Positions 6,001 through 63,220 of a DNA stretch of 64,000 bases are shown in pieces (the first letter of the stretch is position 1; every line of letters begins with the position of its first letter). The stretch is from IMG/VR virus record IMGVR_UViG_3300024259_000011. One strand, written 5' to 3'. The notes under the pieces are model-generated. The model was not told the DNA's origin, ran no database searches, and saw only the letters and a list, made by a program, of their open reading frames with translations. The translations under genes were made by a program, and so were the position numbers. This DNA comes from a virus (lineage: Duplodnaviria; Caudoviricetes).

Positions 6001-8433
6001 ACGAGTGATATCAATCGGAAAGCCAGTAAGAGGTATCATAAACGGCATCAAGAATGCGCCGATCATCAATTCGATGTCCTTGACATAGCAAGACAGATCG
6101 ATAGTCGGGGGCTCAAAGCTGAAAGTGGGAACGCCGCCGACAGCAATGTTTTTAATCATTAACTTGAGGTCATCACATGTCAGGTTGGCAAGCATATCTT
6201 CAATCGAAGCCTGTACCGATTCCTCTAGTTCTTCTAAGTCTTCATCGACAGAGGTTTCTAACTCAGCCTCCGTAGCAGTTCCGCAAACTTCTGGAAGCAA
6301 TGAGTTAAACTCATCCAGCTTGTCTTGTAAGAAGTCCATCTGTTCGCCAACCTGATCAATGATCGGCTGAAGGTGGTTGAACTCAATGCCCATGCCCACA
6401 ATAAGTTGAATCAGGTCATCGCAAGAAACATCCAAATTGTCGAATAATCCATCCAACAAGTTAGCAAAAATGTCATCTGGCAACTGCATCAAGAACTGTT
6501 TAATAAGGGCGTCGATGGAAAACTGTCCAAGTGCTGCCTTCAGCATCGCAGCATAGATGTTATCCAGCCCAAGTTCTGCCATAAGTTTTGCCATGGCAGC
6601 TTCAATCAACTTGGGAATAGAGATTTTCTGCAGCAGTTCGGCAAAAACATCGTCCAAAGAATTAATCTTGTCCAGAACATCTGGCAAGTTGGCAATGATA
6701 TTGTCGCCTGACGGAAGAACAATGTCGGCTCGCGCCAATGCCATATTTGCTAAGAAGCTTGGATCACCTAGTTTAAGGTTCTCAAAATCAATATCCTTTG
6801 GTCCCTTGATCGGCAAAGAGTTAAACTGGTTCGCAATGTTACCTAAGTCGCCTAAGTTCGGAATATTGCCCAAGCCACTTGGCGGGGTAGGTAAGATCAT
6901 CAAAGGCGGAAATGTGTATTTAGTAAGGTATTCCATCCATGGAGGAGTCATGCTCGACCATTGCGGCTTTTTAGCATCACTAAACATGTTATTGCCTTGC
7001 AGAATATAATGCATCAACCGATCTAGGGACGCGGGTTCGTTGGCGGCAAACTGGTTGAAGCTAATATTTTGCGGCATGCCGAGTCCTGTATCGTCTGGAT
7101 AAACAATACAATGCACCGGGTTGAAGGCACCATCTGTACCGATTTCAATAATATCTTCGTGGTCTGGTCTGAGTGGCTGTCCGTTCTTCTGCATGAGACC
7201 TTTCAAGGCGGGCAGGAACTTACGAATACGATTTCCTTGCTTCTTTGCCGAGAACTTGTTTGAGCCGCGAATCGTACCCGGAAACATGTCTACATACATC
7301 TGGATCTTATCCATCGTGTCTGCAACCTTTTTCAGCTTTTTCTCGATTGTGTTAGACTGATACATCACCGTGCGGTGACCGGTCTGCATTTCGGTGGTAG
7401 TACTGTATGACCTCACCATTCGGGGCAAGGCAAGAAGATGTGCCATGTTTACGGAAACTAGCGCCTTGACTGAAACCCCGGGTCTGTCGGATTGAAAAGT
7501 CTTTTCTACTTTTGCAAACTTATAAAGGTCGTCTTGCAAATGTGCAATTGCATTATCCAAGGTCCGGACATCGTATCCTTTTGGGGACCGGTCAAAATAG
7601 ACCAACATTTGCTTAATGCCAACTCTGATGGCGGTCTCATTAAGCATATCCATGACTTCAAGATTTTTGTGACCGGTGTTCACCATGGTCCTGTATTGAA
7701 GTCGTTTCTTGTCAAGCCACGGTTCGCAAGCCTGCATGGTATACCATGGAGAGCCTAATCGCCAACTGCGCTTCTTTGCCTGATTGTGATTTTTGTAGTT
7801 AGGTGACGGAAGTGTGGTGCCACCTTCCCAGCACATATCGCCATATTTCAAGCGATGCAAATGCTGGCGGCGAACGTATCCTACGACCTTATAAAGATCA
7901 ACATTGCGCTCTAGATCTTGGATTCTTACCTTACACCATTTACAATCAGGACCGATTGCTTCATCCAGCAAAGTTACAATAGTAAGGTGATCCACTTCCC
8001 CCAAGACCACTGAGGTGTCAGTCATAAACTTACGCAGCTTAATCGTAGCCCAGCCGGGTTCACCGCCGGCAAGTGTCTTTGGCTCCAGCTTAAAATAGTG
8101 AGTACCAATTGTGCTCTCTTCAAACGAGCCGGCGACCGGGCGCCCTTCATCAAACTGCTTTGTTACACACTCCTCTACAACGCAGTCTGCCAAATCCTCA
8201 TCAGAATATCTCTGGGGTGGCGGAGCTTTGGGCTGAGGATCTTCTGTAATCATTGATACAGAAGACATCATCGGAGAAACTGGAGAGTGCCATGGACCGC
8301 TGACCGTAAACACCTCAACGGCGCTGGTCGCCAATGCCGCAGAAGCCTCGTCGCGTTCTGCCTCAGACAAAGCACTGTCAGTCGATGCTATAAACAGCGC
8401 TTTTCTAGTTTCAATTTCTTCGTCAGTTGCCAT
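1..8433 (-). CDS. Giant putative virion protein, >=2811 aa, 3'-truncated by the window edge
   Basis: ATG at 8431-8433 (MATDEEIETRKALF...). No stop was found in this frame in any line checked down to base 1 (most, not all, lines were read). It has Gly-rich (~4180-4350) and Pro/Leu-rich (~5250-5960) tracts and follows the spike and hub genes. It is absent from the ORF track because the stop lies outside the window. Confidence 0.85.
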   Translation of the reverse strand, partial: MATDEEIETRKALFIASTDSALSEAERDEASAALATSAVEVFTVSGPWHSPVSPMMSSVSMITEDPQPKAPPPQRYSDEDLADCVVEECVTKQFDEGRPVAGSFEESTIGTHYFKLEPKTLAGGEPGWATIKLRKFMTDTSVVLGEVDHLTIVTLLDEAIGPDCKWCKVRIQDLERNVDLYKVVGYVRRQHLHRLKYGDMCWEGGTTLPSPNYKNHNQAKKRSWRLGSPWYTMQACEPWLDKKRLQYRTMVNTGHKNLEVMDMLNETAIRVGIKQMLVYFDRSPKGYDVRTLDNAIAHLQDDLYKFAKVEKTFQSDRPGVSVKALVSVNMAHLLALPRMVRSYSTTTEMQTGHRTVMYQSNTIEKKLKKVADTMDKIQMYVDMFPGTIRGSNKFSAKKQGNRIRKFLPALKGLMQKNGQPLRPDHEDIIEIGTDGAFNPVHCIVYPDDTGLGMPQNISFNQFAANEPASLDRLMHYILQGNNMFSDAKKPQWSSMTPPWMEYLTKYTFPPLMILPTPPSGLGNIPNLGDLGNIANQFNSLPIKGPKDIDFENLKLGDPSFLANMALARADIVLPSGDNIIANLPDVLDKINSLDDVFAELLQKISIPKLIEAAMAKLMAELGLDNIYAAMLKAALGQFSIDALIKQFLMQLPDDIFANLLDGLFDNLDVSCDDLIQLIVGMGIEFNHLQPIIDQVGEQMDFLQDKLDEFNSLLPEVCGTATEAELETSVDEDLEELEESVQASIEDMLANLTCDDLKLMIKNIAVGGVPTFSFEPPTIDLSCYVKDIELMIGAFLMPFMIPLTGFPIDITRLGEIDWSLLQPSAPNLNIRLPDGEFINITDWDVHGPELGNIPGFPALPGGPNLAACAPDLNFPQFAMPDLGSSPGGIQMPNIKFAESFSELEFPGGIEVIIEAIGSLPTGGLPGLSLSDLNPDFPAASLPEIELGDLKFGEFLDDWRRIFAEAMSGFLLSNFALAIAGGGGAFSKFRAKLEGLDWGTDASMSIPEGDGLTPPTIPNSSLPNIPEWDASGTQVPLPTCDMDVSVSEVSGLGWQTLATMPQEWWTKTTEGSDASAVMEVPNFAAMKDQLTGYMTETGQDLSVVIAACEDLADTDFTSVHEWCVIIDKIDALMDALNELNGPDPIEGGRIGLDGGYEINLADITLPTAVFRPKVGCGLIKLYGLPDFGYGGMSFPLPIAGPNGDETFDLFDMPNLLEKLPEIPNFPDLLPPGITADNLSLLCDVPQLFETLFDLMFGNLPTVSGALGELDGFSQNLLNMDSIPGGEGNGVDAKKIMLALFRFIIDKLGLNPMIEQLADILKIAMSAGDLTPAMISEIPAIQIKIDALMAAAPSMPELNVPSLPSMGGGGGFGGGGGFGGGGGSAGGGGGGSVEAPSTALPGGGMPGGGPGSTGGGLSGGSVAGMAEKFEIPTITLPDNIPTGDLMGMMFKGMQDSVKGAIEQALVEMGKSVLRSLLEDAASGGFGDADILDMLSESLGELGALDAINAAFNEMGVDENGKIITTTDTTVEITMGCGEPYELDEDDPPCTPVELVGMISKKLNRNEVKALVGGMIAPSTCSHIEETMRDGCPWMMTVFDDCSKVADTFEVLGEKIKPHILARIEFPRFQAVKDLRVLCCNTEPYWRDMFLKNHPGTEEEAKEAFDEAVLAKVEALEYFSQLMSPFNPLGGDGHGGTIVPSMWPEKNCEERCPGEDPPKPSLFPVDSEIPTLNFMNEMATNLMYEPINLMFKMESDMYPEMLVSGTVLKEAIPFWEAAGTHMGGGDAGISRFAEQLFAQGNPLVKSDGTEWGSGKYKDKIDIVRGISETKDWKKLFQDDIHVLQTRNSSSVVPVLYNSLRRYDYVSDTWDTENKQFSWNFQYGGTAETPLGDAWPTVTWSLEPMTQEDADKRNPKATTTTTIPSTSMTPLGKDCDPPDEIVAEEETSPAGVDWEAGLPVHYQLFRQFVRDKFIKHPNVVEGVDVTSLASWANTGFDSKGAPMGFGFKEVYQQIIGQVIQSAGIQLTYTDLFDTETLKLVEIEPSSMSPRDSCGEKPKSVLDLENTAKKPTKDAFMQACVDPVKEKETGKNALKQAGLMGCVEVTVRVYVIDALLRSIFPLSEYDVKDFDTVFLQQIADKIDKEMNMLDPNYAATFMEQLQENVRSMCEAAKCKDEPLTDPMTGEEITDCDSLDGLMYLIKKHLVSVAPILNEKFGTSTPNLAKRMQKDWLTVLPLPEYPIPDDMDVSGMLSQADLLTTLLMNPRPEVATDGFQTYYSGPAPAPADPEAPESGTSEEDTDTPPETLIWTPMDVTSINAGERISPFLPDNIPLPRMFSFTATDFSSTDLQYVGGETQVMDPETGLPETDPDTGLPTGATITLEARWQQISPEDATTSLFGSNTVNSVYYSLTNNWHYPGHAVYFTPISHPTTTEVRGGLYLEKFIKVGDEYWHPGNFQEFLERLIAAVSTDTPDMMAIAALTAYTITEAHYGLRLSYMYPTNGKDGNNLVEGGDASKSMVTLLNSMFGTTGDMMIPDISRTQGSFLQLEGVNFNVEENASVPMPSTTASEDSEASSETDSGTAIEEEAEDTTEMVDVTAIRTFQERFYNISIPLVETTISAGNPITAALEETLGDTMDAADSAMECEPWDVECLERAARAAVSAVSDLEAMATGYRDAITATPPDYEAIAAMVASYETPWTNAEVALDNKLKDLKKKLRKEDDWNFLFRKCFRQNDIITNLWNYSAMMTEVSVPGIDMSFASTKEECRNLFWTLYHDIGTGGDGFSFDASSQSTSMEIASVNTDTDGGGLPLPIKMA

Positions 8434-9396: not shown

Positions 9397-12300
9397 TTAA
9401 CAACTCTGTGCATTCTGGTTGCCGGGGGCGCACTTGTTGCCAGTACATTCTAGTCCCAGAGCTTCTTGCGGATTGACTTTCACACCATTAACCTTGAACT
9501 CAAAGTGGAGGTGGGCTCCGTACGAGCCGCCAGTATTATCCGCTTGTCCGATTACTTGTCCCTTTGTTACCGTGGCACCCACGGATACTGCGGAAGACAG
9601 CAGATGCATGTATATTGATTCTCTACCGCCGCCATGATCAATCTTAACCATGTTGCCGGCGCCGCCATTACAACTGCCGCCATTGGATGTGTCATTGCAG
9701 TTGTTAGTCGCCAAAGTAACTGTGCCCGGGGCACCAGCAAGAAGTGGTCCGCCATGAGTCGAGGGATTGGATGAAACTACATCAATGCCGTTGTGATTTT
9801 GCATTGCCCCAGTGTCCCAGCAACGGGCGCGCATTCCATAATCAGAAGTAATCGACGGAGTACCAGCGATTGGCCATGAGCCGTTCTGGGCTATGTCTCC
9901 CAACGCTGCAACTTGAGCCGCTGTCATTGGAGTGCCGCCGCCGCCGGCTGCGCCTGCAGCACCGGGTACACCAGCAGCGCCACCGCATTGTTCTGGAGCG
10001 CCGGCTGCAGCAGCAGCGCCGCCACCGGAACCGGCTACGGTTCCTCCTGCACCAGCAGCGTTAGAGCCTTGAGAAGCCCACTCTTGTGCTGGCGGCATGG
10101 GAACGCCACCACTTGTCATGTAGCCTTTAATAAGGGTCATAAGCCGATCCCAGTCAAAGGTTGGTTGACCGTTGATGTTGGGGCTATAAGAGTTAATCTG
10201 GCGTTTTCCATTTGGTGCCATCTTACCACCATCGGGACCGCCTTCAACCGGATAAGAAATGCCATCTGGAAATGGTACGGAGAGGTGTGTGCCCGGGTCG
10301 GAGCGATCTGCTTTTGTCTCGTCATGACCAAAGATGTGAGTTCGATCAACTGGGATCTGGTTTCTGTGACAAACGTTTGCGATTAAGAATGCTAAGTTTT
10401 CATATACTGCATCATTATAAATAGATCCCGGGCTGTTTGACTCTTGTTCCGGAATGCCGCTGATCTCGACTTGAACTGCGCCGGTGTTGTTGCCGCCGGG
10501 AACGGATTTATCTTTGTCCATGGAGACACCCCAAGCATCTCTGCGATATTCTCCGGCGCTCAAGCCTCCGGCGCCGTTTGCAACAGCACTCTCTTTTACG
10601 AATTGGAACACCCAACCGCCCTGATTAATGCCGTAGTGAGTGCTGCCCAATCCGGAGCCGTCGTCAAAGTCAGAGCCGCCGGCGGTCTGGTTATTGCCGG
10701 CTGTTGTATGAACAATAAAATGAGTGATATCTGCTGGGGTTCTGTTCCGTTCGCTCCACCTGTTGGCGTGTGCCGGATACCAGCCGCCTTGATCGTTTGG
10801 GTTGCGACCGCCATCAAAGTTAATGTAACTGAATGGCGGATAAGCGTCTAGGGAAGCGGCGCCGCCTTGTGCTACTCCGCCGCCCTCGGCGGGTGTAGTG
10901 CCGTCAGCAGGCGGGGGATCTTCAGCGCTGGCTGCGCCAGAAGTATCAGTCTCTTCCACTGGGTCAGAACCGAAGTAGGCATCTGGGTCTGGGATGTCGG
11001 CTGAGCCGTCTGAGTATTCGTCTGTTGCCGCGTCAACATCTGACGCTCCGCTGCCGCCGCTGTCGTATCCTAGTTCCGTAGCGGCTGCTTGAGCTACATG
11101 TGACGCGGCTTTGCCTGCATCTGCGATATCTCCCATTCCTGAAAAAGCGCTCACCATGCTAGGTGCGGTTTGAACAGCCATCATATATGCTTCCAAGGAG
11201 ATTGTCTGCATAGCAGGGTTTCTCTCGGCAACACGGTTCCATGATTCAATGCGTTCAATAGCTTCTTGAATCTGTTTACCGAATGTTTCATAGCTTAAGT
11301 TGTTCAAAGCGCCACCTTCAGCAGCTTGTTCATAAGCAAGAGGGCTGAATCGATTAAAGTTTTTAATGATATCCCAGCGGGTACTCTTCCAACAAGGAGT
11401 ATGCTCTTCTGCGTTCAGCCAGTCCCACCATGTCATAGAATATCGAACTTGAGACTTGATCGGCGGGACCATCGGTTCTTCTCTTGGGAACGCTCGGCTG
11501 GTTACATCTTTCACTTCGTCTATAACCTCGGCTGCAACACCGAAACCATCAGCTATATCTTCCATGAGTTCATCACCAGTAAGATCTGCTACAAGATCTG
11601 CAGCCTTACCTCCCAGATCGACAGCTTCTTCTAAGGAGAGTCCGTTACAAGGCGCATCAATCAAAGTTGGATCCCAGCCCTCACATTCGCAACGTGGATC
11701 TGGATCTCCCTCTTCGCAGAACCATTTTAGCCCAAAATAACCAGAACTCCAATCTTCAACACGCTCGGTGGTGGACTCGAACCCGGGCTCAGGCAGATAA
11801 GATGGCGAGTCAGCTTCTGTAGATAGCTCTCCGATATAAGGCGCTGTGCCCTTTGGAGCAAGGAACTCAAGCTCCTCCCTCACACGACCGGGCGGTTTCT
11901 CCGAAGACACTCTATAGTCTTCAAAGCCACTGCCCATCAATCCGAAAGCCGGAATAATATTCTTGAATCCCATTTTGACATAATCTTCTATTGCTGTAAC
12001 AAAATCCGTAGCCTTCAATGCGTTCTGACCGCGCACAGACCGAAGGAACACCTCGCCTGTGGAATCATTAACATAGACATCAGACTTTCCATTGGTGGAA
12101 AGTATTTGGCATATTGACCAATCAACCTTAGAAAAGCATGCATAAGGGAATGAATCTTTATATCGAATGGCGACTGGAGTTTCTTCGCCGTCTAGCTCTG
12201 CGATAGTGTATGTCGCGCTAGGAAGCCATGGGTTTGTGAACCCTACCTGTAGGTGGTATTCCCTACCCGCCTTCATCATCGCTGACGTAAGATATTCTGC

Positions 12301-13431
12301 TTGGCGCGAGTACTTGTCTTTGTCACCCGGAGAGAGGTATCCCCATGTCGGCTCCATGACGATGCCTTTTGCTCCAGAGAGCGTAGCATAATCTACTACG
12401 GTGTCAATAAACTTAGCTGCCTTGCCGGGATAAGGCTTGCCGGATACATAAACTCGGACACCGCCCAGTTGAAACATGCGTGCATATGCCATAAATACAT
12501 TCTTTTGGGCGTATCTGTCTCTCGCATCGCCCTCATATTGTTCAACACATTCCATCACAACGTACCCAAGGTTTGCCCAGAGCGCTCGCTTAAGCGCAGC
12601 CATAGGCTGGGGCATTTTGGGATCTAGAAGCGAAGCCCTGCTAATAAATACTCCCTTGTGATTGTACGGCGAAGCAATTGTATTCAAACTGCCATCTGGG
12701 TTGCGACCCGGGGCGACTTGAGAAAGCGTAGTGATTGAGGTCATGATCTCTAGCATGCAGTCCCAATCGCAATCCTCTGGGAACATGAACGGGTTAACGT
12801 CTTCGTTTGAGACCTCTTCACCACCAACAGCGTCACCCTCTCCACCTTTCGCGTCGAGGGCTGCAGAGCCGCCGGCGTCTGAGGGTGGGCATGAGCCGCC
12901 CTTCTTAAGACCGCCATCAGCTTCGCGAGTCACAACGTTGGCAAGAATCTCTCCGGCGCTATGTGGGTCGCCGTTAGCAATGCTAACTATTACAGCATCA
13001 CCACATTCGGGCTTCTCAATATTTTGTGAAGAAGCATAGTATGTTGGATGCATGTTGATCCAGAACTGGTGCTTGCCCTTAGCTCCGTCGCATCCATATT
13101 TTTCAGGTGCGGGGATCCCTGCGTGAAGAGTCGGGATACGCGCCTTGATTTTAATTGTTTCTGGTATATCGGTCTCTAAGATCTCTTTATACCAAGCTTT
13201 CATCCAACTAGTGCCCGGAACTTTATTAGATTCCGTGTCCACACGAAGGACAATAGCCTTCTGTGGTCCAGAAGGCTTGTTCTTGGGGGTCGCAGTGTCA
13301 ATTGCGTTCTGCCTAAGCTGAGACATCAGGCTGGTGCGCTGATTGCTGCTTATTGCACGATTTGTTGTGTTCTTCTTACCCGAGTTTAGTTTGCCCCAAA
13401 CTAGGTCTTTGAACGGTCCTTTCTTCCCCAT
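9397..13431 (-). CDS. Baseplate hub-like protein with N-acetylmuramoyl-L-alanine amidase and M23 peptidase domains
   Basis: Amidase_2 motifs: HFIVHTT, STHY, VQVE, GHDE, SDPG. M23 motifs: HNGID, YMHL, GAHLHFE. The N-terminal IKARIP...PECGDAVIV segment resembles a gp5 OB-like region. Confidence 0.8.
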   Translation of the reverse strand: MGKKGPFKDLVWGKLNSGKKNTTNRAISSNQRTSLMSQLRQNAIDTATPKNKPSGPQKAIVLRVDTESNKVPGTSWMKAWYKEILETDIPETIKIKARIPTLHAGIPAPEKYGCDGAKGKHQFWINMHPTYYASSQNIEKPECGDAVIVSIANGDPHSAGEILANVVTREADGGLKKGGSCPPSDAGGSAALDAKGGEGDAVGGEEVSNEDVNPFMFPEDCDWDCMLEIMTSITTLSQVAPGRNPDGSLNTIASPYNHKGVFISRASLLDPKMPQPMAALKRALWANLGYVVMECVEQYEGDARDRYAQKNVFMAYARMFQLGGVRVYVSGKPYPGKAAKFIDTVVDYATLSGAKGIVMEPTWGYLSPGDKDKYSRQAEYLTSAMMKAGREYHLQVGFTNPWLPSATYTIAELDGEETPVAIRYKDSFPYACFSKVDWSICQILSTNGKSDVYVNDSTGEVFLRSVRGQNALKATDFVTAIEDYVKMGFKNIIPAFGLMGSGFEDYRVSSEKPPGRVREELEFLAPKGTAPYIGELSTEADSPSYLPEPGFESTTERVEDWSSGYFGLKWFCEEGDPDPRCECEGWDPTLIDAPCNGLSLEEAVDLGGKAADLVADLTGDELMEDIADGFGVAAEVIDEVKDVTSRAFPREEPMVPPIKSQVRYSMTWWDWLNAEEHTPCWKSTRWDIIKNFNRFSPLAYEQAAEGGALNNLSYETFGKQIQEAIERIESWNRVAERNPAMQTISLEAYMMAVQTAPSMVSAFSGMGDIADAGKAASHVAQAAATELGYDSGGSGASDVDAATDEYSDGSADIPDPDAYFGSDPVEETDTSGAASAEDPPPADGTTPAEGGGVAQGGAASLDAYPPFSYINFDGGRNPNDQGGWYPAHANRWSERNRTPADITHFIVHTTAGNNQTAGGSDFDDGSGLGSTHYGINQGGWVFQFVKESAVANGAGGLSAGEYRRDAWGVSMDKDKSVPGGNNTGAVQVEISGIPEQESNSPGSIYNDAVYENLAFLIANVCHRNQIPVDRTHIFGHDETKADRSDPGTHLSVPFPDGISYPVEGGPDGGKMAPNGKRQINSYSPNINGQPTFDWDRLMTLIKGYMTSGGVPMPPAQEWASQGSNAAGAGGTVAGSGGGAAAAAGAPEQCGGAAGVPGAAGAAGGGGTPMTAAQVAALGDIAQNGSWPIAGTPSITSDYGMRARCWDTGAMQNHNGIDVVSSNPSTHGGPLLAGAPGTVTLATNNCNDTSNGGSCNGGAGNMVKIDHGGGRESIYMHLLSSAVSVGATVTKGQVIGQADNTGGSYGAHLHFEFKVNGVKVNPQEALGLECTGNKCAPGNQNAQSC

Positions 13432-13435
13432 GCCA

Positions 13436-13732
13436 TTATGATTCCTTTATCAGATCGTATATCTTGTCTTTATCCATGTCGGTCAAGGAAGCGGTAGTGG
13501 AATCCCCTTGACGCTTAAGTAAAAGTCCCGATATTTTAACCAGTTGCTCATTAGAGCGTTGGAGGGTTTCGACATATTTTGCGGCTGTAAGCCCAACGTC
13601 GCGGTGAGTAGACTCACCCTTCGCAAGAAACTGAATAATATCGTCTAAAAGCTCTTTTGTAACATCACGATCTTCACGGATATTGTCAATAGCTTCTTCT
13701 AGATAATCATCGATGTTCTGCTTCTTGCTCAT
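13436..13732 (-). CDS. Hypothetical helical protein
   Basis: 98-aa ORF coupled to the sigma-like gene. Confidence 0.75.
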   Translation of the reverse strand: MSKKQNIDDYLEEAIDNIREDRDVTKELLDDIIQFLAKGESTHRDVGLTAAKYVETLQRSNEQLVKISGLLLKRQGDSTTASLTDMDKDKIYDLIKES

Positions 13733-14421
13733 AATTTCCCCTCATCCCAGTCTTTCTTAAAAGTTCTGTATTTCGCCCTCATTTTGTTGAGGTTGTTTAC
13801 AATCTGTTTTGTGTTTAGACCGGTAATCTCTCTAATGTATAAATAAATAGCTTTCTTATTGAAAATTTCAATCGAATCTGGGTTGTCTAAGAGGATCTTT
13901 ATCGCTTCTAATACTTTTTTCTCATTTGGTTTGAGGTTTCCGGTGTCCCATGACTCCATTTCCTTCCATAAGTTTTCCCAAAACTCCCTTTCAGTACGCT
14001 TAGCATAATAGCCGTGAGTGACGACTAACTTCTCATCTAAGATCGGTCTGACCATCACATCCGTAATCGAGATTTCAACTCGGCGTGCTTTTGAGTTCTT
14101 TTTAACCTTTGCGATAAACCAGTTCTTTGTGATCACCGAAAAATACGAAAAAGCTTTAGAGCCCTTGGACGGGTCGAACTTCTGTAAGATCGTGGTAAGC
14201 CAAATCTTACATTCATCCCTTAGGGAATCAATATTCGGCAGTGTGGTAAATCTGTATGTGAAAACTATCTTGTCAACCATCTCGCTAAAGACTGGACCAA
14301 TATAGTTGTTGTATAAATATTCTCTTTCATCCAAGTCTGTAGTATTATTGAAATCAATAATTGCCTGTTCATGGACTTTAGTAAAATATGCTGTTTTTCT
14401 ACGGCGCTTCGCCATCTTCAA
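13729..14421 (-). CDS. Phage sigma-like transcription factor (T4 gp55-like)
   Basis: YFT..EQAII N-terminus and region-2-like KFDPSKGSKAFSYFSVITKNWFI, comparable to gp55 NFDETK..HAYIT..FN. Confidence 0.7.
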   Translation of the reverse strand: MKMAKRRRKTAYFTKVHEQAIIDFNNTTDLDEREYLYNNYIGPVFSEMVDKIVFTYRFTTLPNIDSLRDECKIWLTTILQKFDPSKGSKAFSYFSVITKNWFIAKVKKNSKARRVEISITDVMVRPILDEKLVVTHGYYAKRTEREFWENLWKEMESWDTGNLKPNEKKVLEAIKILLDNPDSIEIFNKKAIYLYIREITGLNTKQIVNNLNKMRAKYRTFKKDWDEGKL

Positions 14422-41388: not shown

Positions 41389-42632
41389 TGCCTAAACAGA
41401 CCCACATCTACCATAACTAGTTGCCCACTATCTGGGCGCATCATGACATTGCCTGTGTGCATGTCTCTGGGACTAAATGATTTGCCGTGCAGATATTCCA
41501 TTGCGTTCAACAAACCCTCGGCTTCTGAGAATGTCTCTTGCGTGTGTTTGCCGCCGCCGCCTAATCTGGCACCTTCTGGGGCGCCGTACGTCATTGGAAC
41601 GACTTGCATCTTCAGATGGTAATACATCCTATCATCAAGCTCGTATGACACACTGTCCATCACTGATTCTCTACGAGTTGAAAAGTAATCGTGGAGTTCA
41701 GGGTTGGCGTCTGGATCCAACTCATGTTTCTTGACAAAATCAGGAAGCATGTTATCGATCTTATTAAAAAAGATGTTTAATAATCGTGGTCCATGTGGCT
41801 CAAATGACGAAGCATGATAGCGTGACAAGCGACCATAGTTAACATACATGTTTTCTCTTGGGCTTTCGCCTGTAAGGAAAGCGTTGGTGACTTGCTTAAT
41901 CAACGTGTCAAGATGCCATTTAGACCAGCGGTCCACAGCAGCAGTCATATGAGGCGAGATGGACTTAGCCATGTTTGTGATCAACTCAGTTACCGCACCT
42001 TCACTGCCGAATGTACGTTTGATTTTGCTTGTAGGAATCTCTTCGTCGGGGTCATCCATTAATAAAGTGGCCAGTACTTCCTTTGGTGCAGTAGTCAACA
42101 ACTCCATAATAATCACTAACGCACCTTCTGCCATTTGATACGGCTGCTCGCGGTGGTTTACGATGTCTTTGCCGGGAATTCTGTCAACAGAGTACACATT
42201 AACAAGGTGCCGTTTTACCTCTTCGGGTAGGTTTGTTCTATTCTCCAGAATCCATCTATAATTTTGCTCTTCTTTATCAATCTGTTGACCTGCCAAGAGT
42301 GCTGATACTACTTTAACTGCAAGTCTGCGCCCTGAACGTCCTTCAATCTCCCAAATCTTTCCGTATTGCCCTTCATCAACAAAACGATTGACCCAGAAGC
42401 CTCGGTCTTCCAATATCTTCTCCAGCATACGCGGCATGACGCGCACAGGCTTCACAGGCTTGGGCGCAGTTGCTGTTGCGTCAACACTGTCGCCGCGGAC
42501 ACCTAAAGCCTTAAGCGCATTCTTAAGCGCGCCGCCGCGCTTCTCGTTCTCCATGTCTTTCTGGAGTTTTTTCACCAAGTCGGAAGTTTCACCCTCGGTA
42601 AACCGCCGGAAGTTTTCAAGTAGGAGTTTCAT
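41385..42632 (-). CDS. Atypical protein-kinase-like enzyme with ENF leader
   Basis: EGQYGKIW, LAVK, IMELL, MEYLH..RDMHTGN, VDVG. Confidence 0.8.
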   Translation of the reverse strand: MKLLLENFRRFTEGETSDLVKKLQKDMENEKRGGALKNALKALGVRGDSVDATATAPKPVKPVRVMPRMLEKILEDRGFWVNRFVDEGQYGKIWEIEGRSGRRLAVKVVSALLAGQQIDKEEQNYRWILENRTNLPEEVKRHLVNVYSVDRIPGKDIVNHREQPYQMAEGALVIIMELLTTAPKEVLATLLMDDPDEEIPTSKIKRTFGSEGAVTELITNMAKSISPHMTAAVDRWSKWHLDTLIKQVTNAFLTGESPRENMYVNYGRLSRYHASSFEPHGPRLLNIFFNKIDNMLPDFVKKHELDPDANPELHDYFSTRRESVMDSVSYELDDRMYYHLKMQVVPMTYGAPEGARLGGGGKHTQETFSEAEGLLNAMEYLHGKSFSPRDMHTGNVMMRPDSGQLVMVDVGLFRQ

Positions 42633-43005
42633 CTATCGTCGCTCCTTGTAGTAAAACGCCAGAGGGTAAAAGAACCGAACCAAAAATCTCCAAACTATCT
42701 AAGGCGGTTTTAGCACTGCTGTTCCAATATTCTAAATCATCAGGATCACCCATCTCTTCATACTGCTGTACTATCGTCATGTTTGGTTCTATTTCGCCTC
42801 TTATTTTTTCCAACGGCACTTTTACTATTGTCGGACTCTCATAACTATTGGCATAGTCTTTTGCGGTTTGGAAATCTCCCCAATATGTTTCAACTGCTGT
42901 GAAGTTATCAATCATTTCGTGGGCGAAATCCTTTGAGGTTCCGTGATATAAGTAACCTTGTTCTTCTTTCAAATACTCTCGCCAATTTTCAAGTAGGTCT
43001 TTCAT
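42616..43005 (-). CDS. ADP-ribosyltransferase-like protein with ENW leader
   Basis: LYHGTS...YW...AKDYA. The start is MKDLLENW (ATGA overlap with the upstream stop). Confidence 0.55.
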   Translation of the reverse strand: MKDLLENWREYLKEEQGYLYHGTSKDFAHEMIDNFTAVETYWGDFQTAKDYANSYESPTIVKVPLEKIRGEIEPNMTIVQQYEEMGDPDDLEYWNSSAKTALDSLEIFGSVLLPSGVLLQGATIDETPT

Positions 43006-43568
43006 TTTTTTAAGCCTTCGGTTCCGTACCCTCCGAGAGACCATGAGCCGTTCATTATATGACCAACATGGTGAACATCATCAAACCCCATGGCATGACC
43101 AAGTTCGTGTTCTAAGATTCTTTCCGAATCACCCCATGCTGACATTATCTCAATCTTTGCTTTAAAGATTCGACCGGTATCATTATTGCGCCAAGTTTTA
43201 GTTGTGCCCAAGTGAGTTCCCATCTTAAAGCCTTGGCTCGGGATATCGATCATTATTGTATTATATGGCACCTTTCCGCGTGCGCAGCCATAATCGTCGG
43301 AGGAGGCTTGCTTAATGTTGCCAAACTCATAACCTAATCGTTTCCAATAGCCGACAGCCCTTTCTATTCTATTCATGCTCACCGGACCTCGATGACATAA
43401 TATGATGTCTGGAGGGTAACGCCATGAACCGCTGCGAGTCGGAACATTTGATGCGAAAGTTTTTGCAGGACACACCCACGTTTCGGGAGGGGGTGATAGC
43501 TGGTCTACCGTGTGTGCCGTACGGGGAAACGGGTATGCTATAGCCGTCCAGAGAAGCAATGCTTTCAT
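43002..43568 (-). CDS. Exported matrixin-like metallopeptidase
   Basis: HELGHAMGFDDVH..HIM. Confidence 0.88.
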   Translation of the reverse strand: MKALLLWTAIAYPFPRTAHTVDQLSPPPETWVCPAKTFASNVPTRSGSWRYPPDIILCHRGPVSMNRIERAVGYWKRLGYEFGNIKQASSDDYGCARGKVPYNTIMIDIPSQGFKMGTHLGTTKTWRNNDTGRIFKAKIEIMSAWGDSERILEHELGHAMGFDDVHHVGHIMNGSWSLGGYGTEGLKK

Positions 43569-44538: not shown

Positions 44539-45168
44539 CTATGGGTTGGGGGTTCCCAACATAATCTTTAATTCATTTTCATGTCCTTGAATAGTTCTAG
44601 TGTACCAGCCGTCGATGCCCGGGTATTTACCATCCGGGTGAGGTCCGAGCCATGTAATCGGTTTTGAGGCGCCCAGTGTTTTCTGTACAACTTCCGGGTC
44701 GTCCACATAAGGGGTGTCATGATATTTCAACATAACATGTGCGATGCCTTTAGACATCTCTGCATATGTGCCGGGTGAACGCAGCATATCTGCTGTCTTT
44801 GCTTTGTAAGCGTCGATAGACGTGCGTTTACCATCGTGTCCAGATGCGGACAGTTTTAGTCCGGCAGGTTTGCTTTTAGCAACGCGAAGAGCATCAGGTT
44901 CCGGGTCATCGTCAATATCAATAGCTGACCAATGGTCTGCATCGCCGGGGATGTCTGAGGGGCTTTTATAATCGAAGTTGCCGCCGATGTCCTTATATGC
45001 GTTAGCAATCAGCGCGTGTAACTCATCGGTAATATCGACGTTCTCGGGATCACTTGACATGTCACTAGTAGGAATCTCTTCCCAGTTACCCTTGTCGTGT
45101 CCATAGTCAGCCCAAGTTTCTTCATTAACAAACTTGCGCCAATTTTCCATGATGAGTTGGTGTTTCAT
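44539..45168 (-). CDS. Hypothetical protein with ENW leader
   Basis: MKHQLIMENWRKFVNEE. Confidence 0.8.
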   Translation of the reverse strand: MKHQLIMENWRKFVNEETWADYGHDKGNWEEIPTSDMSSDPENVDITDELHALIANAYKDIGGNFDYKSPSDIPGDADHWSAIDIDDDPEPDALRVAKSKPAGLKLSASGHDGKRTSIDAYKAKTADMLRSPGTYAEMSKGIAHVMLKYHDTPYVDDPEVVQKTLGASKPITWLGPHPDGKYPGIDGWYTRTIQGHENELKIMLGTPNP

Positions 45169-45422
45169 TTTACTTCGTCTACAGACTTATCCATTTCATC
45201 GTCAAAGTCAGGTCTGATCCAAACCATTGAATTGAACTGTGCCCTTTTTCTGTCAAGTAATAGAGCACCTTGTGGTTTCACAAGTTCTCCCTGAATCTCA
45301 ACACCTTCAAAGTCAATCTCTGTTTTCTGTTTATAAACAACCTTGGGCTCATTTTCGTCAGCGTGTACCGGGGAAGATGATACAAGGAGTGCAAAGGTTA
45401 ATAATATTTTACCACTCGCCAT
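45165..45422 (-). CDS. cglF: Adventurous gliding motility protein CglF/GltF homolog
   Basis: Signal peptide, then VVYKQKTEIDFEGVEIQGELVKPQG..LDRKRAQFNSMV.IRPDFDDEMDKSVDEV. This matches the recalled CglF pattern YxKKTxIDF..V.GEL.KP.G....RK...F.SLI..R.NF..EL.KS. Confidence 0.78.
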   Translation of the reverse strand: MASGKILLTFALLVSSSPVHADENEPKVVYKQKTEIDFEGVEIQGELVKPQGALLLDRKRAQFNSMVWIRPDFDDEMDKSVDEVK

Positions 45423-45645
45423 CGAAGCCTGCTCCTGCGGCTAGCGCTGCCGCTAGTCTATCGACATCATCATCGCTCATATGAGCGGTAGCGTCGATAG
45501 GTTCTTCCAAAGACATGATTTGGTCATTAGTAAGTTCAGGCTCAGTGTCGTCCTCTGGTGGTGGGACATCGCCCGGGTCGTCATCGCGCTTGTATTTTCC
45601 TTCCATAAACCGTCTCCAGTTCTCCATTATTAGTTTTTGATCCAT
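45409..45645 (-). CDS. Acidic hypothetical protein with ENW leader
   Basis: MDQKLIMENWRRFMEG; GGAG SD. Confidence 0.75.
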   Translation of the reverse strand: MDQKLIMENWRRFMEGKYKRDDDPGDVPPPEDDTEPELTNDQIMSLEEPIDATAHMSDDDVDRLAAALAAGAGFDGEW

Positions 45646-45732
45646 TTTAGTCTCCTCCGTACGTGACCCAAAGCTCGATGGCTTCTTTATATTCATAGAT
45701 TTCTTCAAGCGGCATGCTGGCTAGTGCTCGAT

Positions 45733-46877: not shown

Positions 46878-47041
46878 ACCGTAAATAGTTTACGATTTCC
46901 AATTATAGTTCACACGACCGTCAAAATCAAGTTTTTTTCTATGGACTATTTATTAGCGTACGAAGCTTATGTTGCTATTAACCTTGCCGACCGTCCGGGT
47001 AGCGTAGGGATAGTGGTGCGAGCGTACTTAGGAGGAACAAT

Positions 47042-47223: not shown

Positions 47224-47249
47224 AAAAAACCCGCCGAAGCGGGTTTTTT
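47224..47249. terminator. Bidirectional intrinsic terminator
   Basis: AAAAAACCCGC-CGAA-GCGGGTTTTTT between convergent genes. Confidence 0.92.
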
Positions 47250-47907: not shown

Positions 47908-48279
47908 TGGTGGAGGCGGCGGGAATCGAACCCGCGTCCAGAATAAGTCTAATTGTAGTCGTTCACAAGTTTATTCAGTTTTGGTGCAACGAAACTGAAA
48001 AAGTTGACTATCTTGATCTGATCCCACCGTTGCCGGCGATAGCCTTTGAATCAGATATGGTTTGGTGGTTTTAAGATACCGCTTACCACCCTGTTGCAGC
48101 ATCTACTCAAATTGGATAGAAGGTTTTGAGTGACCTCCCGATTAAGCCGCTAGGCGTACAGAATCGAAGTGGTTATTGTTATTAGCAATTATGTTTTGTA
48201 TCTGCGTTTAAAGTCTGCTGGTACGTTTGACTACTTGCACTTTTCCTCTTTCCTACCCTGTCGAAACCGGGGCGCCCCC
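47908..48279 (-). ncRNA. ssrA: tmRNA (372 nt), tag (A)ANNNNHFDSVRLAA
   Basis: 5' GGGGGCG...TTTCGAC; 3' GGTTCGATTCCCGCCGCCTCCACCA; G3-U wobble; tag ORF 48142-48186 ending LAA-TAA. Confidence 0.95.
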
Positions 48280-57630: not shown

Positions 57631-59769
57631 TTAGTTGTGGTGACCCGGAACTTCAGCCATTTGTTTGTCTAAAGCATACTCTTCTTCTGATTTTGCACCC
57701 ATTTTGACCAATATCGCTTTTAGATCGGCGATCTCGTCATCGACGGAGCCCTTGACGTTGGCATCCGGTAACTCGCCACACTCTGATAGCCATCTTAGGA
57801 AGTTTTCGTGTAGATCTGCATGCTTATCCATTCCAAGCTTGCGCATTTCGCGAACAGCCTTACGCCCGGGCTCTAAAACATTCTCTTGTACACCCTCATT
57901 GAGCCATTGCCCTGCAGCAGTCTGTGAATGCTTCGATAGTGCTCCCTTTTCGGGTGTTGTATGGTACTCAATTGACTTTAATGAAGCAAGCATGTCCTTC
58001 AACAGCTTAATCATCTCCACATCTCGCTCTTCTTCGCCTGCCATCATAGTCTTCAGGACCATTCCACGCAAATCATCAGCAGTCAGCCCGTTATCTTTGG
58101 ATATCGGGGTTTCCTTCGGCGATGGCTTCCCTTTATCGCCCCATTTGCGTTCTGTAAGTGCTTGATACTCTTTACGAATCATAGATTTAAGGATATGCAT
58201 AGTAGATTCAGCTATAGCCTCTTCATCTTCCTCTTCTTCCGGCTCTTCTTCGTCCTCAGATTCTTTTTCGGCTTCAGCTTCGGCTGCAGCTTCTTTATCT
58301 GCAGCCTCGCGCTCCGCGTTAGCTACTTCTGCCTCTGCTTCGTCTTCTGCCTTCGCATCTTCCGCTTCAGTGTCGCGATCTTCTCGCTCTTCCTCTCTTT
58401 CTTCTTCTTCTTCCGATCTGGCTTCTTCATCGGAGGCTAAAGTATCACCAAACTCTGGTGCAGTTTCTCCGAACTCTGTTTCAGCATCTCCGAACTCCGA
58501 TGTTGCATCGGACATATCCTTTTGTCCGTCTGCCATACCATCCAGCGCAGCCTGTTCAGCTTCTGCCGCAGACTCCACTGCTGCTGCTGCCTTTTGTTCT
58601 TGCTCATGTGCCTTTCTTGCAACGTCAAGAGCTTTCTGCTTCTCTGCAGCGGCTGCTTCTGCCGCCTTTGATGCGTCTTGCGCAGCAGACGCAGCTTTCT
58701 CGGCAGCATCGGTTGCCTTGCCTTCTTTGTCGGCATGTTTCTCGGCAGCGTCAACAGCAGCAATCTTTAATTTGCCGGCATCTCGCCAGACCTGAGAAGC
58801 TTCCTTTCTTTCACCGGCTGCTTTGGCTGCCTCTTCCTGTGCGCCTGATAACTCTTCTCCTGCATCTCCTTGAGCGAGAGCAGCATCACCCATTTCCTTA
58901 GCAGCGTCACCCATTTCCTTAGCGGCATCGGGTGCTTCAAGGTCAGCTTCTTGTACGACCTCTCTCTTCTTGTAGATTTCTTCTTCAGGAGGTTCGCCCT
59001 CACCGAAGCCCCGCTTCTTCTTGTTCTTTGTTTCAGCAACGAGGGATTTAAACTTGGGCTTAAGTGTTGACATAAACTTTCTCTTAAGCGTTTCTTTGGC
59101 AGTGCCTGATTTCATAAAAGCAATGGTTGCAACATCTACTGCAGGCTTGAGTTCGGCTGCAGCCTTGGCGACCAGTTCATCAAAGGAGGTTTTTGCAACG
59201 ATCTCTTTATTAACCAACATAGATTGTAGTTTATTCAGAACTCGTTGATCGATCTCTTCCAGAGAAGCAAACCAGTTTCCACCTGCGGAAGAATCAGATC
59301 CGGCTGATGCGTCTGTGGCTGTAGGATTTGACAATCCTTTTACGTTCCAGCTTGGAGGACATTCTGCTTTGGCAGCACCTCCCCACATTCCACCTTGTGC
59401 GACTAGTCCGCAGACCCATGCTGCAGCCTTCACAGGATCAAACTTAATATCACCGCGCCATGGCTTCTCTCGTATTGGCCAATCGCCAACATCGGCGCCC
59501 ACTTGGCTAGCGCCGTGTTCTACCATCTTCTCGAAGGAAGGTACGCTGGTCATCTTAGGAACCGCTTTGACAATCCACAACAAGGTCTGTCGTTCCTTGC
59601 TGCTTAGTCTCTCCCACTCACTAGTGTTGCGCTCGCGTTCCATTTCTCTGTCCGCTTTGCGCTCCATGTCATCTAAGAAGTCAGAGCCATGACCAGATGC
59701 AAAATCTGCCATGTCAATACGCTCGGTTAATAGTTCGGCAACGGCTTGTTTGAGATCTTCAATCTTCAC
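57631..59769 (-). CDS. Large Ala/Glu-rich coiled-coil protein (putative head/core)
   Basis: MKIEDLKQAVAELLTE; long low-complexity helical region. Confidence 0.75.
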   Translation of the reverse strand: MKIEDLKQAVAELLTERIDMADFASGHGSDFLDDMERKADREMERERNTSEWERLSSKERQTLLWIVKAVPKMTSVPSFEKMVEHGASQVGADVGDWPIREKPWRGDIKFDPVKAAAWVCGLVAQGGMWGGAAKAECPPSWNVKGLSNPTATDASAGSDSSAGGNWFASLEEIDQRVLNKLQSMLVNKEIVAKTSFDELVAKAAAELKPAVDVATIAFMKSGTAKETLKRKFMSTLKPKFKSLVAETKNKKKRGFGEGEPPEEEIYKKREVVQEADLEAPDAAKEMGDAAKEMGDAALAQGDAGEELSGAQEEAAKAAGERKEASQVWRDAGKLKIAAVDAAEKHADKEGKATDAAEKAASAAQDASKAAEAAAAEKQKALDVARKAHEQEQKAAAAVESAAEAEQAALDGMADGQKDMSDATSEFGDAETEFGETAPEFGDTLASDEEARSEEEEEREEEREDRDTEAEDAKAEDEAEAEVANAEREAADKEAAAEAEAEKESEDEEEPEEEEDEEAIAESTMHILKSMIRKEYQALTERKWGDKGKPSPKETPISKDNGLTADDLRGMVLKTMMAGEEERDVEMIKLLKDMLASLKSIEYHTTPEKGALSKHSQTAAGQWLNEGVQENVLEPGRKAVREMRKLGMDKHADLHENFLRWLSECGELPDANVKGSVDDEIADLKAILVKMGAKSEEEYALDKQMAEVPGHHN
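58880..58929. repeat. 21-bp tandem repeat (AAKEMGD x2+)
   Basis: gcagcatcacccatttcctta / gcagcgtcacccatttcctta / gcggcatc. Confidence 0.85.
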
Positions 59770-62164: not shown

Positions 62165-63220
62165 TCAGGATCCGGTATCACCAGTATCCATGGCGCCAGT
62201 ACCGTACGGGTCGTCAGGATCATAGTGATAAGCAATATCCACATGTTCGTGTGCAGAGGGGATAACAGTAAAGTACACAGTGTTGTCAGAGGACTGATAA
62301 TACCAATCCCAGTTCAAAGCCCCGTCAATGAATACACGCATTGTGTCTTCGTGCGAGGGAACATATGTTAATTCAATCGATTCAAACGGCTCCACATTTG
62401 AGGTGGCATCCGTCACTCCGGGTGACCAGTCCTCAGCACAGATATCTACGATGACCCCACCGAAGAAGTTTGTTGCTTCCATATATCGGTCGCCAACGTC
62501 AATAGGGCTTGGCATAGATGCGCACACACTATGTGCTTGATCTACATTATTAATACTGGATTGAAAAACACTTCCGCCGCGCTGTGAGCTAAACCAGCTT
62601 GTCCAATCTATTACGTCAATCATCTGGGTTCTGCTCTGTTCTTCTTCATCAGAGACAAAGACAACTAAAAGAGCAGCATCTGGACGCATCCATGTGCTGG
62701 CGTACGGGTTGCTAACAATGTAGTCATAGGCAGCGTCAAAGCCCTGCTCCATGCCACCACGCGCCATGGCATTATACATATCCATGGCATCATCAATATC
62801 GTCACCGGGTACCAGTGGGAATTGCGCTTCCGCTACTGCGAGCCTAGGGTCGCTGCTCATCATCGCTAATCTCCACCCGGATTCTGGTAACGCATTCATC
62901 ATTGCTTCAATGCCAGCCATCAGTTCAGGATCATATCGATACATGGATCCAGAAGTATCAATGACCCAAAGGATATCAACTCCGTCCATTGCAGCAGACT
63001 GCGTATCGGAGTCTACCCAAATCTCTCCGTACTCTGTCTCACCCGGTACTTCGACTTCAATATAAACAGGGACTTCAACAAACACAGTATCACCGGGCAC
63101 CTCCTCGTAAACAATGATGGGTTCCCCATCACCTTCGGCATGGACGACATAATCGATCCCACCGGTGCATCCAGTCACCGCAGTCGCAACTGCGAGAACT
63201 AAAAGAAACAATTTTTTCAT
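62165..63220 (-). CDS. vWA-domain lipoprotein
   Basis: Lipobox VTGC; MIDAS VIDTSGS; VFVSDEEE. Confidence 0.85.
   Translation of the reverse strand: MKKLFLLVLAVATAVTGCTGGIDYVVHAEGDGEPIIVYEEVPGDTVFVEVPVYIEVEVPGETEYGEIWVDSDTQSAAMDGVDILWVIDTSGSMYRYDPELMAGIEAMMNALPESGWRLAMMSSDPRLAVAEAQFPLVPGDDIDDAMDMYNAMARGGMEQGFDAAYDYIVSNPYASTWMRPDAALLVVFVSDEEEQSRTQMIDVIDWTSWFSSQRGGSVFQSSINNVDQAHSVCASMPSPIDVGDRYMEATNFFGGVIVDICAEDWSPGVTDATSNVEPFESIELTYVPSHEDTMRVFIDGALNWDWYYQSSDNTVYFTVIPSAHEHVDIAYHYDPDDPYGTGAMDTGDTGS

Follow-up and report, generated by a model that had tools for sequence, protein, structure and literature searches.

Sequence analysis of a 64,000-nucleotide stretch of viral DNA (IMG/VR record IMGVR_UViG_3300024259_000011; the whole stretch is referred to here as the window) indicates that it encodes a host-derived homolog of gltF (cglF), which in myxobacteria codes for a small linker, located in the periplasm, of the gliding (Glt/Nfs-type) machine that spans the envelope. 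The carrier was assigned, from hallmark genes read in its relatives G001 and G002, to a large uncultured marine T4-like jumbo phage. The gene occupies positions 45165 to 45422 of the minus strand (whole coding sequence including the stop codon, with an ATG start, as given in the open reading frame listing) and codes for a secreted protein of 85 amino acids (aa).

A Shine-Dalgarno sequence, AGGAG, was read directly from the minus strand at 45432 to 45436, 9 nt before the ATG, and falls within the 3' end of the upstream open reading frame (ORF). The start of the gltF-like gene overlaps this upstream ORF (45409 to 45708) by 14 nt and its stop overlaps the downstream ORF (44539 to 45168) by 4 nt, so that the gene is packed tightly in a run of same-strand genes. 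A sigma-70-like promoter match (TTGATT-17-TATAAT; 46902 to 46930, minus strand), in a sequence where the count of promoter-like sites was not above shuffled expectation, could head the gene run from 46877 to approximately 43002 that includes the gltF-like gene. The preceding transcription unit is closed by a strong intrinsic-terminator-like hairpin after the FKBP gene (47224 to 47249, minus strand), consisting of an 11-pair stem and then a T run, and the position of the promoter match behind this terminator hints at expression from host-type signals. No run containing the window stretch was found in a metatranscriptome search.

Protein features and family membership

Residues 1 to 21 (MASGKILLTFALLVSSSPVHA; 45360 to 45422, minus strand) were predicted by sequence inspection to form a signal peptide. 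Also by inspection, the leader is organized like a Sec signal, its n-, h-, and c-regions being recognizable as a basic start, a core of hydrophobic residues, and a VHA that precedes the cut; cleavage is predicted after A21, and the mature part would start with DENE. A21 was nearly invariant in the family alignment, and a comparable hydrophobic leader was present at the start of all 47 copies extracted from IMG/VR and of the bacterial copies. An initial annotation, made without database searches, had described an 85-aa secreted protein resembling CglF nearly end to end; the ORF and its Sec-type leader, as read by inspection, bear out the first part of this description, and the profile match given next upholds the second.

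Compared to NCBIfam model NF033764 (gliding_CglF), the protein produced a significant match (E value, 8e-15; 54.7 bits), in which residues 14 to 83 aligned with profile positions 17 to 87 of 88. This score is below the 90-bit equivalog cutoff of the model and equals those of bacterial copies located within glt clusters, seven of which scored 51 to 64 bits; three phage copies from other lineages scored 46 to 59 bits. Because the glt-cluster copies also score 51 to 64 bits, the cutoff leaves out this uncultured lineage as a whole and is not particular to the phage copy. Neither Pfam nor PHROGs contained a match to the 85-aa protein. A library-wide phmmer search returned 537 representatives at an E value of ≤0.001, most of them 75 to 95 aa in length.

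Family blocks (YK..TEIDFE, GELVKP, FNPLI.LR, and DF..EM..SV) were compared between the window protein and its relatives. All of the family-wide invariant residues (Y30, T34, F38, G45, P50, F63, and F73) are kept in the window protein. The most conserved block in the column table spans residues 30 to 50 (YKQKTEIDFEGVEIQGELVKP; 45273 to 45335, minus strand). It is followed by a linker motif at residues 63 to 70 (FNSMVWIR; 45213 to 45236, minus strand), which corresponds to a near-invariant FNPLI(K/R)LR in bacteria; the window copy has FNSMV in place of the FNPLI block, whose positions do not vary among 73 bacterial species. The C-terminal segment, residues 71 to 85 (PDFDDEMDKSVDEVK; 45168 to 45212, minus strand), includes a helix predicted by AlphaFold2 (AF2) at residues 74 to 84, and DFDDEMDKSVDE within this segment is common to the window protein and the nearest copies from metagenome-assembled genomes (MAGs).

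The closest described counterpart in these respects, GltF/CglF of Myxococcus xanthus (MXAN_4868), is likewise a small secreted protein of 80 to 90 aa that shares the conserved blocks along its entire length, and it was listed as 89 aa with a signal peptide (PMC3169522, Table 1). Its predicted shape is also that of the phage protein, with a helix at the C terminus and most of the chain unfolded (PMC11761067). The two differ in the linker, which is FNSMVWIR in the phage copy and FNPLIKLR in GltF, and in setting, since bacterial GltF orthologs sit between gltE and gltG whereas the phage copy has no other glt gene nearby.

Several of the genes around the gltF-like gene share features of their own. 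The proteins encoded by flanking ORFs at 42616 to 43044, 44539 to 45168, and 45409 to 45708 (all minus strand) share an N-terminal peptide (LLENWREYL, LIMENWRKFV, and LIMENWRRFM, respectively). These ENWR-start proteins are otherwise unrelated and without a Pfam match; the gltF-like protein has a Sec leader instead. Between 43002 and 44527 (minus strand) lie genes for a thioredoxin/AhpC-like protein with a lipoprotein-type leader (MIRLLLLMFAIGCGACG) and for a 188-aa protein in which a leader and a metalloprotease motif, HELGH, are present. The thioredoxin/AhpC-like, HELGH, and gltF genes may form an envelope-directed gene set.

Phage carriers, bacterial counterparts, and host lineage

All long ORFs of the window lie on one strand, and the window contains four tRNAs and one tmRNA. 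It encodes a gp55-like late sigma factor, a PhoH-like protein, and a long block of glycosyltransferases. No capsid, portal, or terminase gene was found in the 64-kb window, and hallmark genes were seen in its relatives only. Thirty-seven of the 85 window ORFs, including that for the gp55-like late sigma factor, are common to G001, a 195,690-bp viral record rated 100% complete by CheckV. Both G001 and its relative G002 (203 kb) encode a large terminase, a gp23-type capsid protein (E value, about 1e-60), and a tail sheath, and the same hallmark genes were found in two further gltF-carrying lineages, G004 (289 kb) and G005 (132 kb, 39% complete).

Records of the identical 85-aa protein occur in 199 index blocks. 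Four loci encoding it were fetched and represented four different samples (one TARA, one HAWL, and two JGI), in which the neighboring genes were mostly 97 to 100% identical, with values down to about 71% in the TARA contig. Forty-seven IMG/VR contigs encode a copy at 47 to 77% identity, and approximately 35 of these also share several other window genes. The 24 related phage copies lie amid homologs of the same phage genes, in shuffled order. No other glt genes were found within 10 kb of the copy at any of the 47 IMG/VR loci, in the window, or in the whole of G001, and the homolog was absent, by protein or DNA search, from 50,697 GenBank phage records.

The missing capsid, portal, and terminase genes, together with the tmRNA, tRNAs, and cell-like enzymes encoded in the window, could be taken to mean that the gltF-like gene is not a phage gene, whether host DNA was mis-assembled or mis-binned onto a phage contig or the window itself is bacterial. 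This explanation is highly improbable, however, given identical junctions in independent assemblies from different samples, overlaps of the gene with both of its neighbors, and a phage-like GC3 of 0.31 versus 0.60 to 0.88; moreover, the 24 related phage copies occur among homologs of the same phage genes, the relatives are complete T4-like genomes, and no glt partner gene is nearby. Host contamination, raised in the initial annotation as the alternative to a phage-borne gene, is therefore countered by the shared neighbors in independent assemblies, by codon composition, and by the T4-like relatives.

Other window genes were also compared with phage and bacterial proteins. Within 9397 to 14421 (minus strand), a 1,344-aa protein resembles a tail-lysin or tape-measure protein in having an M23-peptidase part at its C terminus together with a lysozyme-like part, and the adjoining gene encodes a protein of 230 aa with a match to the T4 gp55-type late sigma factor (phrog_234) and 59% identity to its G001 counterpart. 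A 351-aa von Willebrand factor A (VWA)-like protein (62165 to 63220, minus strand) is 56 to 62% identical in related phages and has a weak match of approximately 50 residues to the Bdellovibrio MIDAS adhesin model NF052240. It was considered as a CglB-type gliding part or adhesin and rejected: the MIDAS-adhesin match covers only those approximately 50 residues, and the host homologs are ordinary VWA proteins of approximately 310 to 590 aa at roughly 30% identity.

Among bacteria, a protein from a Myxococcota MAG (P0094; GCA_036131855.1) was 74% identical to the window protein. Its gene is flanked by a gene for a 521-aa protein at the GltE position and by one for a 652-aa FHA protein (GltG-like), with a gene for a 1,033-aa TPR protein (GltD-like) upstream. 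A genome scan (one genome per GTDB species, with a narrowed alignment) returned 80 loci, and in all 80 the homolog was inside a glt/nfs-type cluster. Where loci reached far enough, the cluster started with genes for two paralogous proteins of approximately 280 aa and a protein of approximately 610 aa, followed by GltD-, GltE-, GltF-, and GltG-like genes and one for a protein of approximately 240 aa. No other genes were common to the window and the 80 bacterial loci.

Loci L005 to L007 and L067 to L146, from uncultured Myxococcota, contain a contiguous A-B-C-D-E-F-G-H cluster, after which comes a gene for a protein of approximately 390 aa with Ig-like (HYDIN/ASH) domains. A contiguous A-to-H order is that of nfs, the sporulation paralog of Glt in M. 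xanthus (Luciano et al., PMC3169522). In gene order, the candidate-host cluster resembles the nfs operon more than it does the split glt clusters of M. xanthus. Because the A-to-H order is as in nfs, the host system is named here as Glt/Nfs-type and gliding is not assumed; the host machine may be of an undifferentiated or Nfs-like type that does not drive gliding.

A tree was built from 58 columns of the mature protein with 34 distinct phage copies and 73 distinct bacterial copies. The window copy fell in a clade of 24 phage copies (support, 100/85), and this phage clade was joined, with moderate support (91/88, 86/73, and 93/70) over only 58 columns, by four copies from marine MAGs (up to 74% identity). 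The four copies came from XB_MAG53 and UBA796 (both titled Myxococcota or Deltaproteobacteria), SAT32, and one MAG with an obviously wrong Enterobacterales title. The remaining phage copies were placed elsewhere in the tree. Several independent captures of gltF by phages were considered: phage and bacterial labels required five changes on the free tree, with at least two forced by well-supported branches alone, and a single clade of all phage copies was not rejected (approximately unbiased [AU] test, P = 0.246).

A pointer to the host that is independent of the gltF tree comes from the tmRNA tag. The phage tmRNA gene (47908 to 48279, minus strand) encodes the tag ANNNNHFDSVRLAA, and the corresponding tags are ANNNNHFAAAAVA in UBA2957, ANNNNHFAATAVA in SAT32, and ANNNDNFAAAAVA in XB_MAG53. 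In this comparison, made within the candidate host lineage, the first seven tag residues (ANNNNHF) are identical in the phage, UBA2957, and SAT32, and the tag-coding stretches of the phage and candidate host tmRNAs align almost base for base. The tails of the tags differ (DSVRLAA in the phage versus AAAAVA), and another genome of the candidate host class has the tag ANNNNNFALAA. On these comparisons, the host is most likely an uncultured marine Myxococcota of the lineage of XB_MAG53, UBA2957, UBA796, and SAT32. The Myxococcota-like host proposed in the initial annotation thus agrees both with the nearest cellular copies, which are in marine Myxococcota MAGs, and with the tmRNA tag.

When 40 kb of the window was compared with 182 genomes of the candidate host class, no matches of the CRISPR-spacer type were found; the only matches were to the conserved tmRNA 3' end, the gltF gene (at 69%), an acidic low-complexity region, and one unexplained 75-nt stretch. 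This last stretch, of approximately 75 nt at 4268 to 4344 inside a giant ORF (1 to 8433, minus strand), matched 16 candidate-class genomes at 77 to 81%, occurred twice in tandem in one genome, and contained no tRNA according to ARAGORN. It lies within the most GC-rich 2-kb block of the window (4001 to 6000; GC, 0.53), which is one of only two 2-kb blocks with a positive AT skew. The acidic low-complexity region, at 58218 to 58373 in an ORF for a 712-aa protein, is rich in CTTC/GCTTC on the plus strand; it gives short spurious matches (76 to 100%) in several bacterial genomes, and these are not CRISPR spacers. Myxococcota MAGs from the South China Sea, mostly of class UBA796, contained highly expressed T4-like gp19 tail-tube genes that were read as contractile injection systems (PMC11937823). 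In view of the T4-like phages described here, part of those contigs could instead represent phage DNA that was binned together with its host.

Selection and phage-specific substitutions

Among the 24 related phage copies, the median dN/dS was 0.076 over 68 usable pairs, most pairs of phage copies being saturated at synonymous sites. The dS relative to the nearest bacterial copies was saturated and not estimable. The GC3 was 0.31 for the window copy and averaged 0.34 in the phage clade, compared with 0.60 to 0.88 in the four nearest bacterial copies. Taken together, dN/dS and GC3 indicate that the gene has acquired phage composition and is under strong purifying selection, and therefore that it is not a recent pickup.

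The bacterial linker is a near-fixed F63-N-P-L-I-(K/R)-L-R70, with P65 in 73 of 73 copies, L66 in 72 of 73, and I67 in 73 of 73. In the phage clade, M66 was present in all 24 copies, and the sub-clade of the window additionally had S65, V67, W68, and I69 in 10 of 10 copies (FNSMVWIR). The change P65S was found in 12 of the 24 phage-clade copies, D57E in 13, and E46T/S in 7, and E76 was changed in 5, while the host-like FNPMIKLR was kept in 14 of the 24. The mean column entropy was lower in the phage clade (0.54) than in bacteria (0.72), the phage clade being less diverse. The strand block was best preserved, with 3 of 15 near-invariant bacterial columns varying in the phage clade, compared with 4 of 7 in the linker; bacterial invariance in the TEIDFE and DF.DEM blocks was partly imposed by the genome-scan search patterns, none of which included the FNPLI block.

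Predicted contacts and proposed role

An AF2 model of the window protein (108-sequence alignment) contained a helix at residues 3 to 14, within the signal peptide, and a helix at residues 74 to 84, with an extended chain between them; because its pTM was 0.22, the protein is considered to have no fold of its own. Modeling of M. xanthus proteins placed GltF as a largely disordered bridge between GltG and GltC (PMC11761067). In that model, a GltF strand (residues 94 to 111 in the 147-aa annotation) pairs with the TonB-C-like sheet of GltG, and the C-terminal helix (residues 133 to 147) sits in a crevice of GltC, with GltD contacts en route (PMC11761067). The lengths listed for GltF, 89 aa (PMC3169522) and 147 aa (PMC11761067), suggest a difference in N-terminal annotation only, and M. 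xanthus positions were mapped to the window protein by counting residues back from the C terminus, a correspondence drawn from the numbering. By this count, strand pairing with GltG would involve approximately residues 32 to 49, within the most conserved block, and insertion of the helix into GltC would involve residues 71 to 85. The phage protein thus probably docks onto GltG and GltC in the periplasm, as judged from a contact map that is an AlphaFold model of M. xanthus proteins only about 40% identical.

It is proposed, tentatively and at somewhat less than even confidence, that the exported phage GltF docks on GltG and GltC and thereby uncouples and stops the machine in the infected cell. 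In this reading, a host-derived gltF (cglF) gene has had a long residence in one clade of T4-like marine jumbo phages. The 85-aa precursor would be exported through Sec during infection and its signal peptide removed, and the mature protein of approximately 64 aa, without a fold of its own, would dock in the periplasm onto the partners of host GltF. The conserved strand (residues 30 to 50) would extend the beta-sheet in the TonB-C-like domain of GltG, and the C-terminal helix (residues 71 to 85) would sit in the crevice of GltC, an outer-membrane-associated TPR protein. Made in excess from phage signals and with its linker altered from FNPLIKLR to FNSMVWIR, the phage copy would occupy GltG and GltC separately, so that the inner-membrane Agl motor side would be uncoupled from the outer-membrane Glt platform and the machine would stop in the infected cell. 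Other phages that rely on the machine might also be kept out by such uncoupling. Altered motility, remodeling of the envelope complex, and masking of the receptor, the roles suggested in the initial annotation, are likewise candidates.

Least certain of these steps is the direction of the effect, namely that the machine is jammed and not sustained. We lean toward uncoupling because a two-sided adaptor in excess saturates its partners separately, because the phage copies shift constraints at host-invariant positions, and because these phages carry no part of the machine but its smallest bridging subunit. Strong conservation would suit a working replacement no less than a competitor. In such a replacement, which is possible but on the whole doubtful, the phage copy would stand in for host GltF, a small linker that is unfolded and probably short-lived. 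It would keep the Glt machine, and with it surface movement or feeding, running after shutoff of host expression, with a gain in phage yield or spread. Consistent with replacement are the retention of all family-wide invariant residues, the dN/dS of approximately 0.08, the preservation of both predicted partner-binding elements, the host-like FNPMIKLR in 14 of 24 clade copies, and the requirement for gltF in gliding and GltD clustering in M. xanthus (PMC3169522). Replacement is at odds, however, with changes in the phage copies at residues that never vary in 73 bacterial species and with the carriage of one of roughly 17 machine parts, and it supposes that GltF is limiting or unstable.

The same linker changes bear on a third explanation, in which the strand is a binding peptide reused for a purpose unrelated to Glt and now binds another TonB-, TolA-, or GltJ-type domain or a phage protein. 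The motif also occurs inside long proteins of 600 to 1,300 aa, the linker motif is remodeled in the sub-clade of the window, and the products of neighboring genes (a thioredoxin-like lipoprotein and a leader-bearing HExxH protein) also appear to be exported. Reuse of this kind nevertheless appears decidedly unlikely, as DFDDEMDKSVDE of the C-terminal helix is identical to that of the nearest host GltF, which is hard to explain unless a GltC-type partner is retained.

The Agl-Glt machine couples a TonB/Tol-like motor to a platform in the outer membrane. In an extension of the uncoupling proposal, phages would depend on the energized machine for adsorption or DNA entry, and the GltF copy, by disconnecting platform and motor, would serve as a superinfection-exclusion factor; this specific function is unlikely, though conceivable. 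Phages are known to block pili and flagella, and we know of none that blocks the Agl-Glt machine. Tip of phage D3112 and Aqs1 of DMS3 reportedly block type IV pili, leading to superinfection exclusion. In its proposed role, the GltF copy would likewise be a small phage protein acting on a surface-motility machine, but neither Tip nor Aqs1 is homologous to a machine subunit, and both target PilB in the cytoplasm, whereas phage GltF is a copy of a periplasmic subunit. A second parallel is psbA of cyanophages, a host-derived auxiliary gene of marine phages. As with psbA, the gltF-like gene appears to be a captured host gene for a component of a large complex, with phage composition and under purifying selection; unlike the psbA product, GltF is a structural linker of an envelope machine and not a metabolic or photosynthetic protein. 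A literature search found no paper linking CglF/GltF, or any Agl-Glt part, to phages, in keeping with the statement in the initial annotation that no described phage use of this protein was known, and a 2026 preprint on viruses of myxobacteria makes no mention of CglF or jumbo phages.

For the phages, these results lead to a concrete host assignment, open to testing, for a widespread clade of T4-like marine phages with genomes of roughly 200 kb. If the phage copy does act as an exclusion factor, gliding-machine subunits would for the first time have a phage-encoded mimic, one that uncouples a bacterial focal-adhesion complex naturally and in a dose-dependent manner; if it is an uncoupler, overproducing a two-sided adaptor would be an easy way to obtain a dominant-negative effect. 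Of the periplasmic parts of that complex, GltF is the least understood, with contacts known only from modeling, and the natural phage variants, which combine strong selection with a remodeled linker, are ready-made probes for which of these contacts matter.
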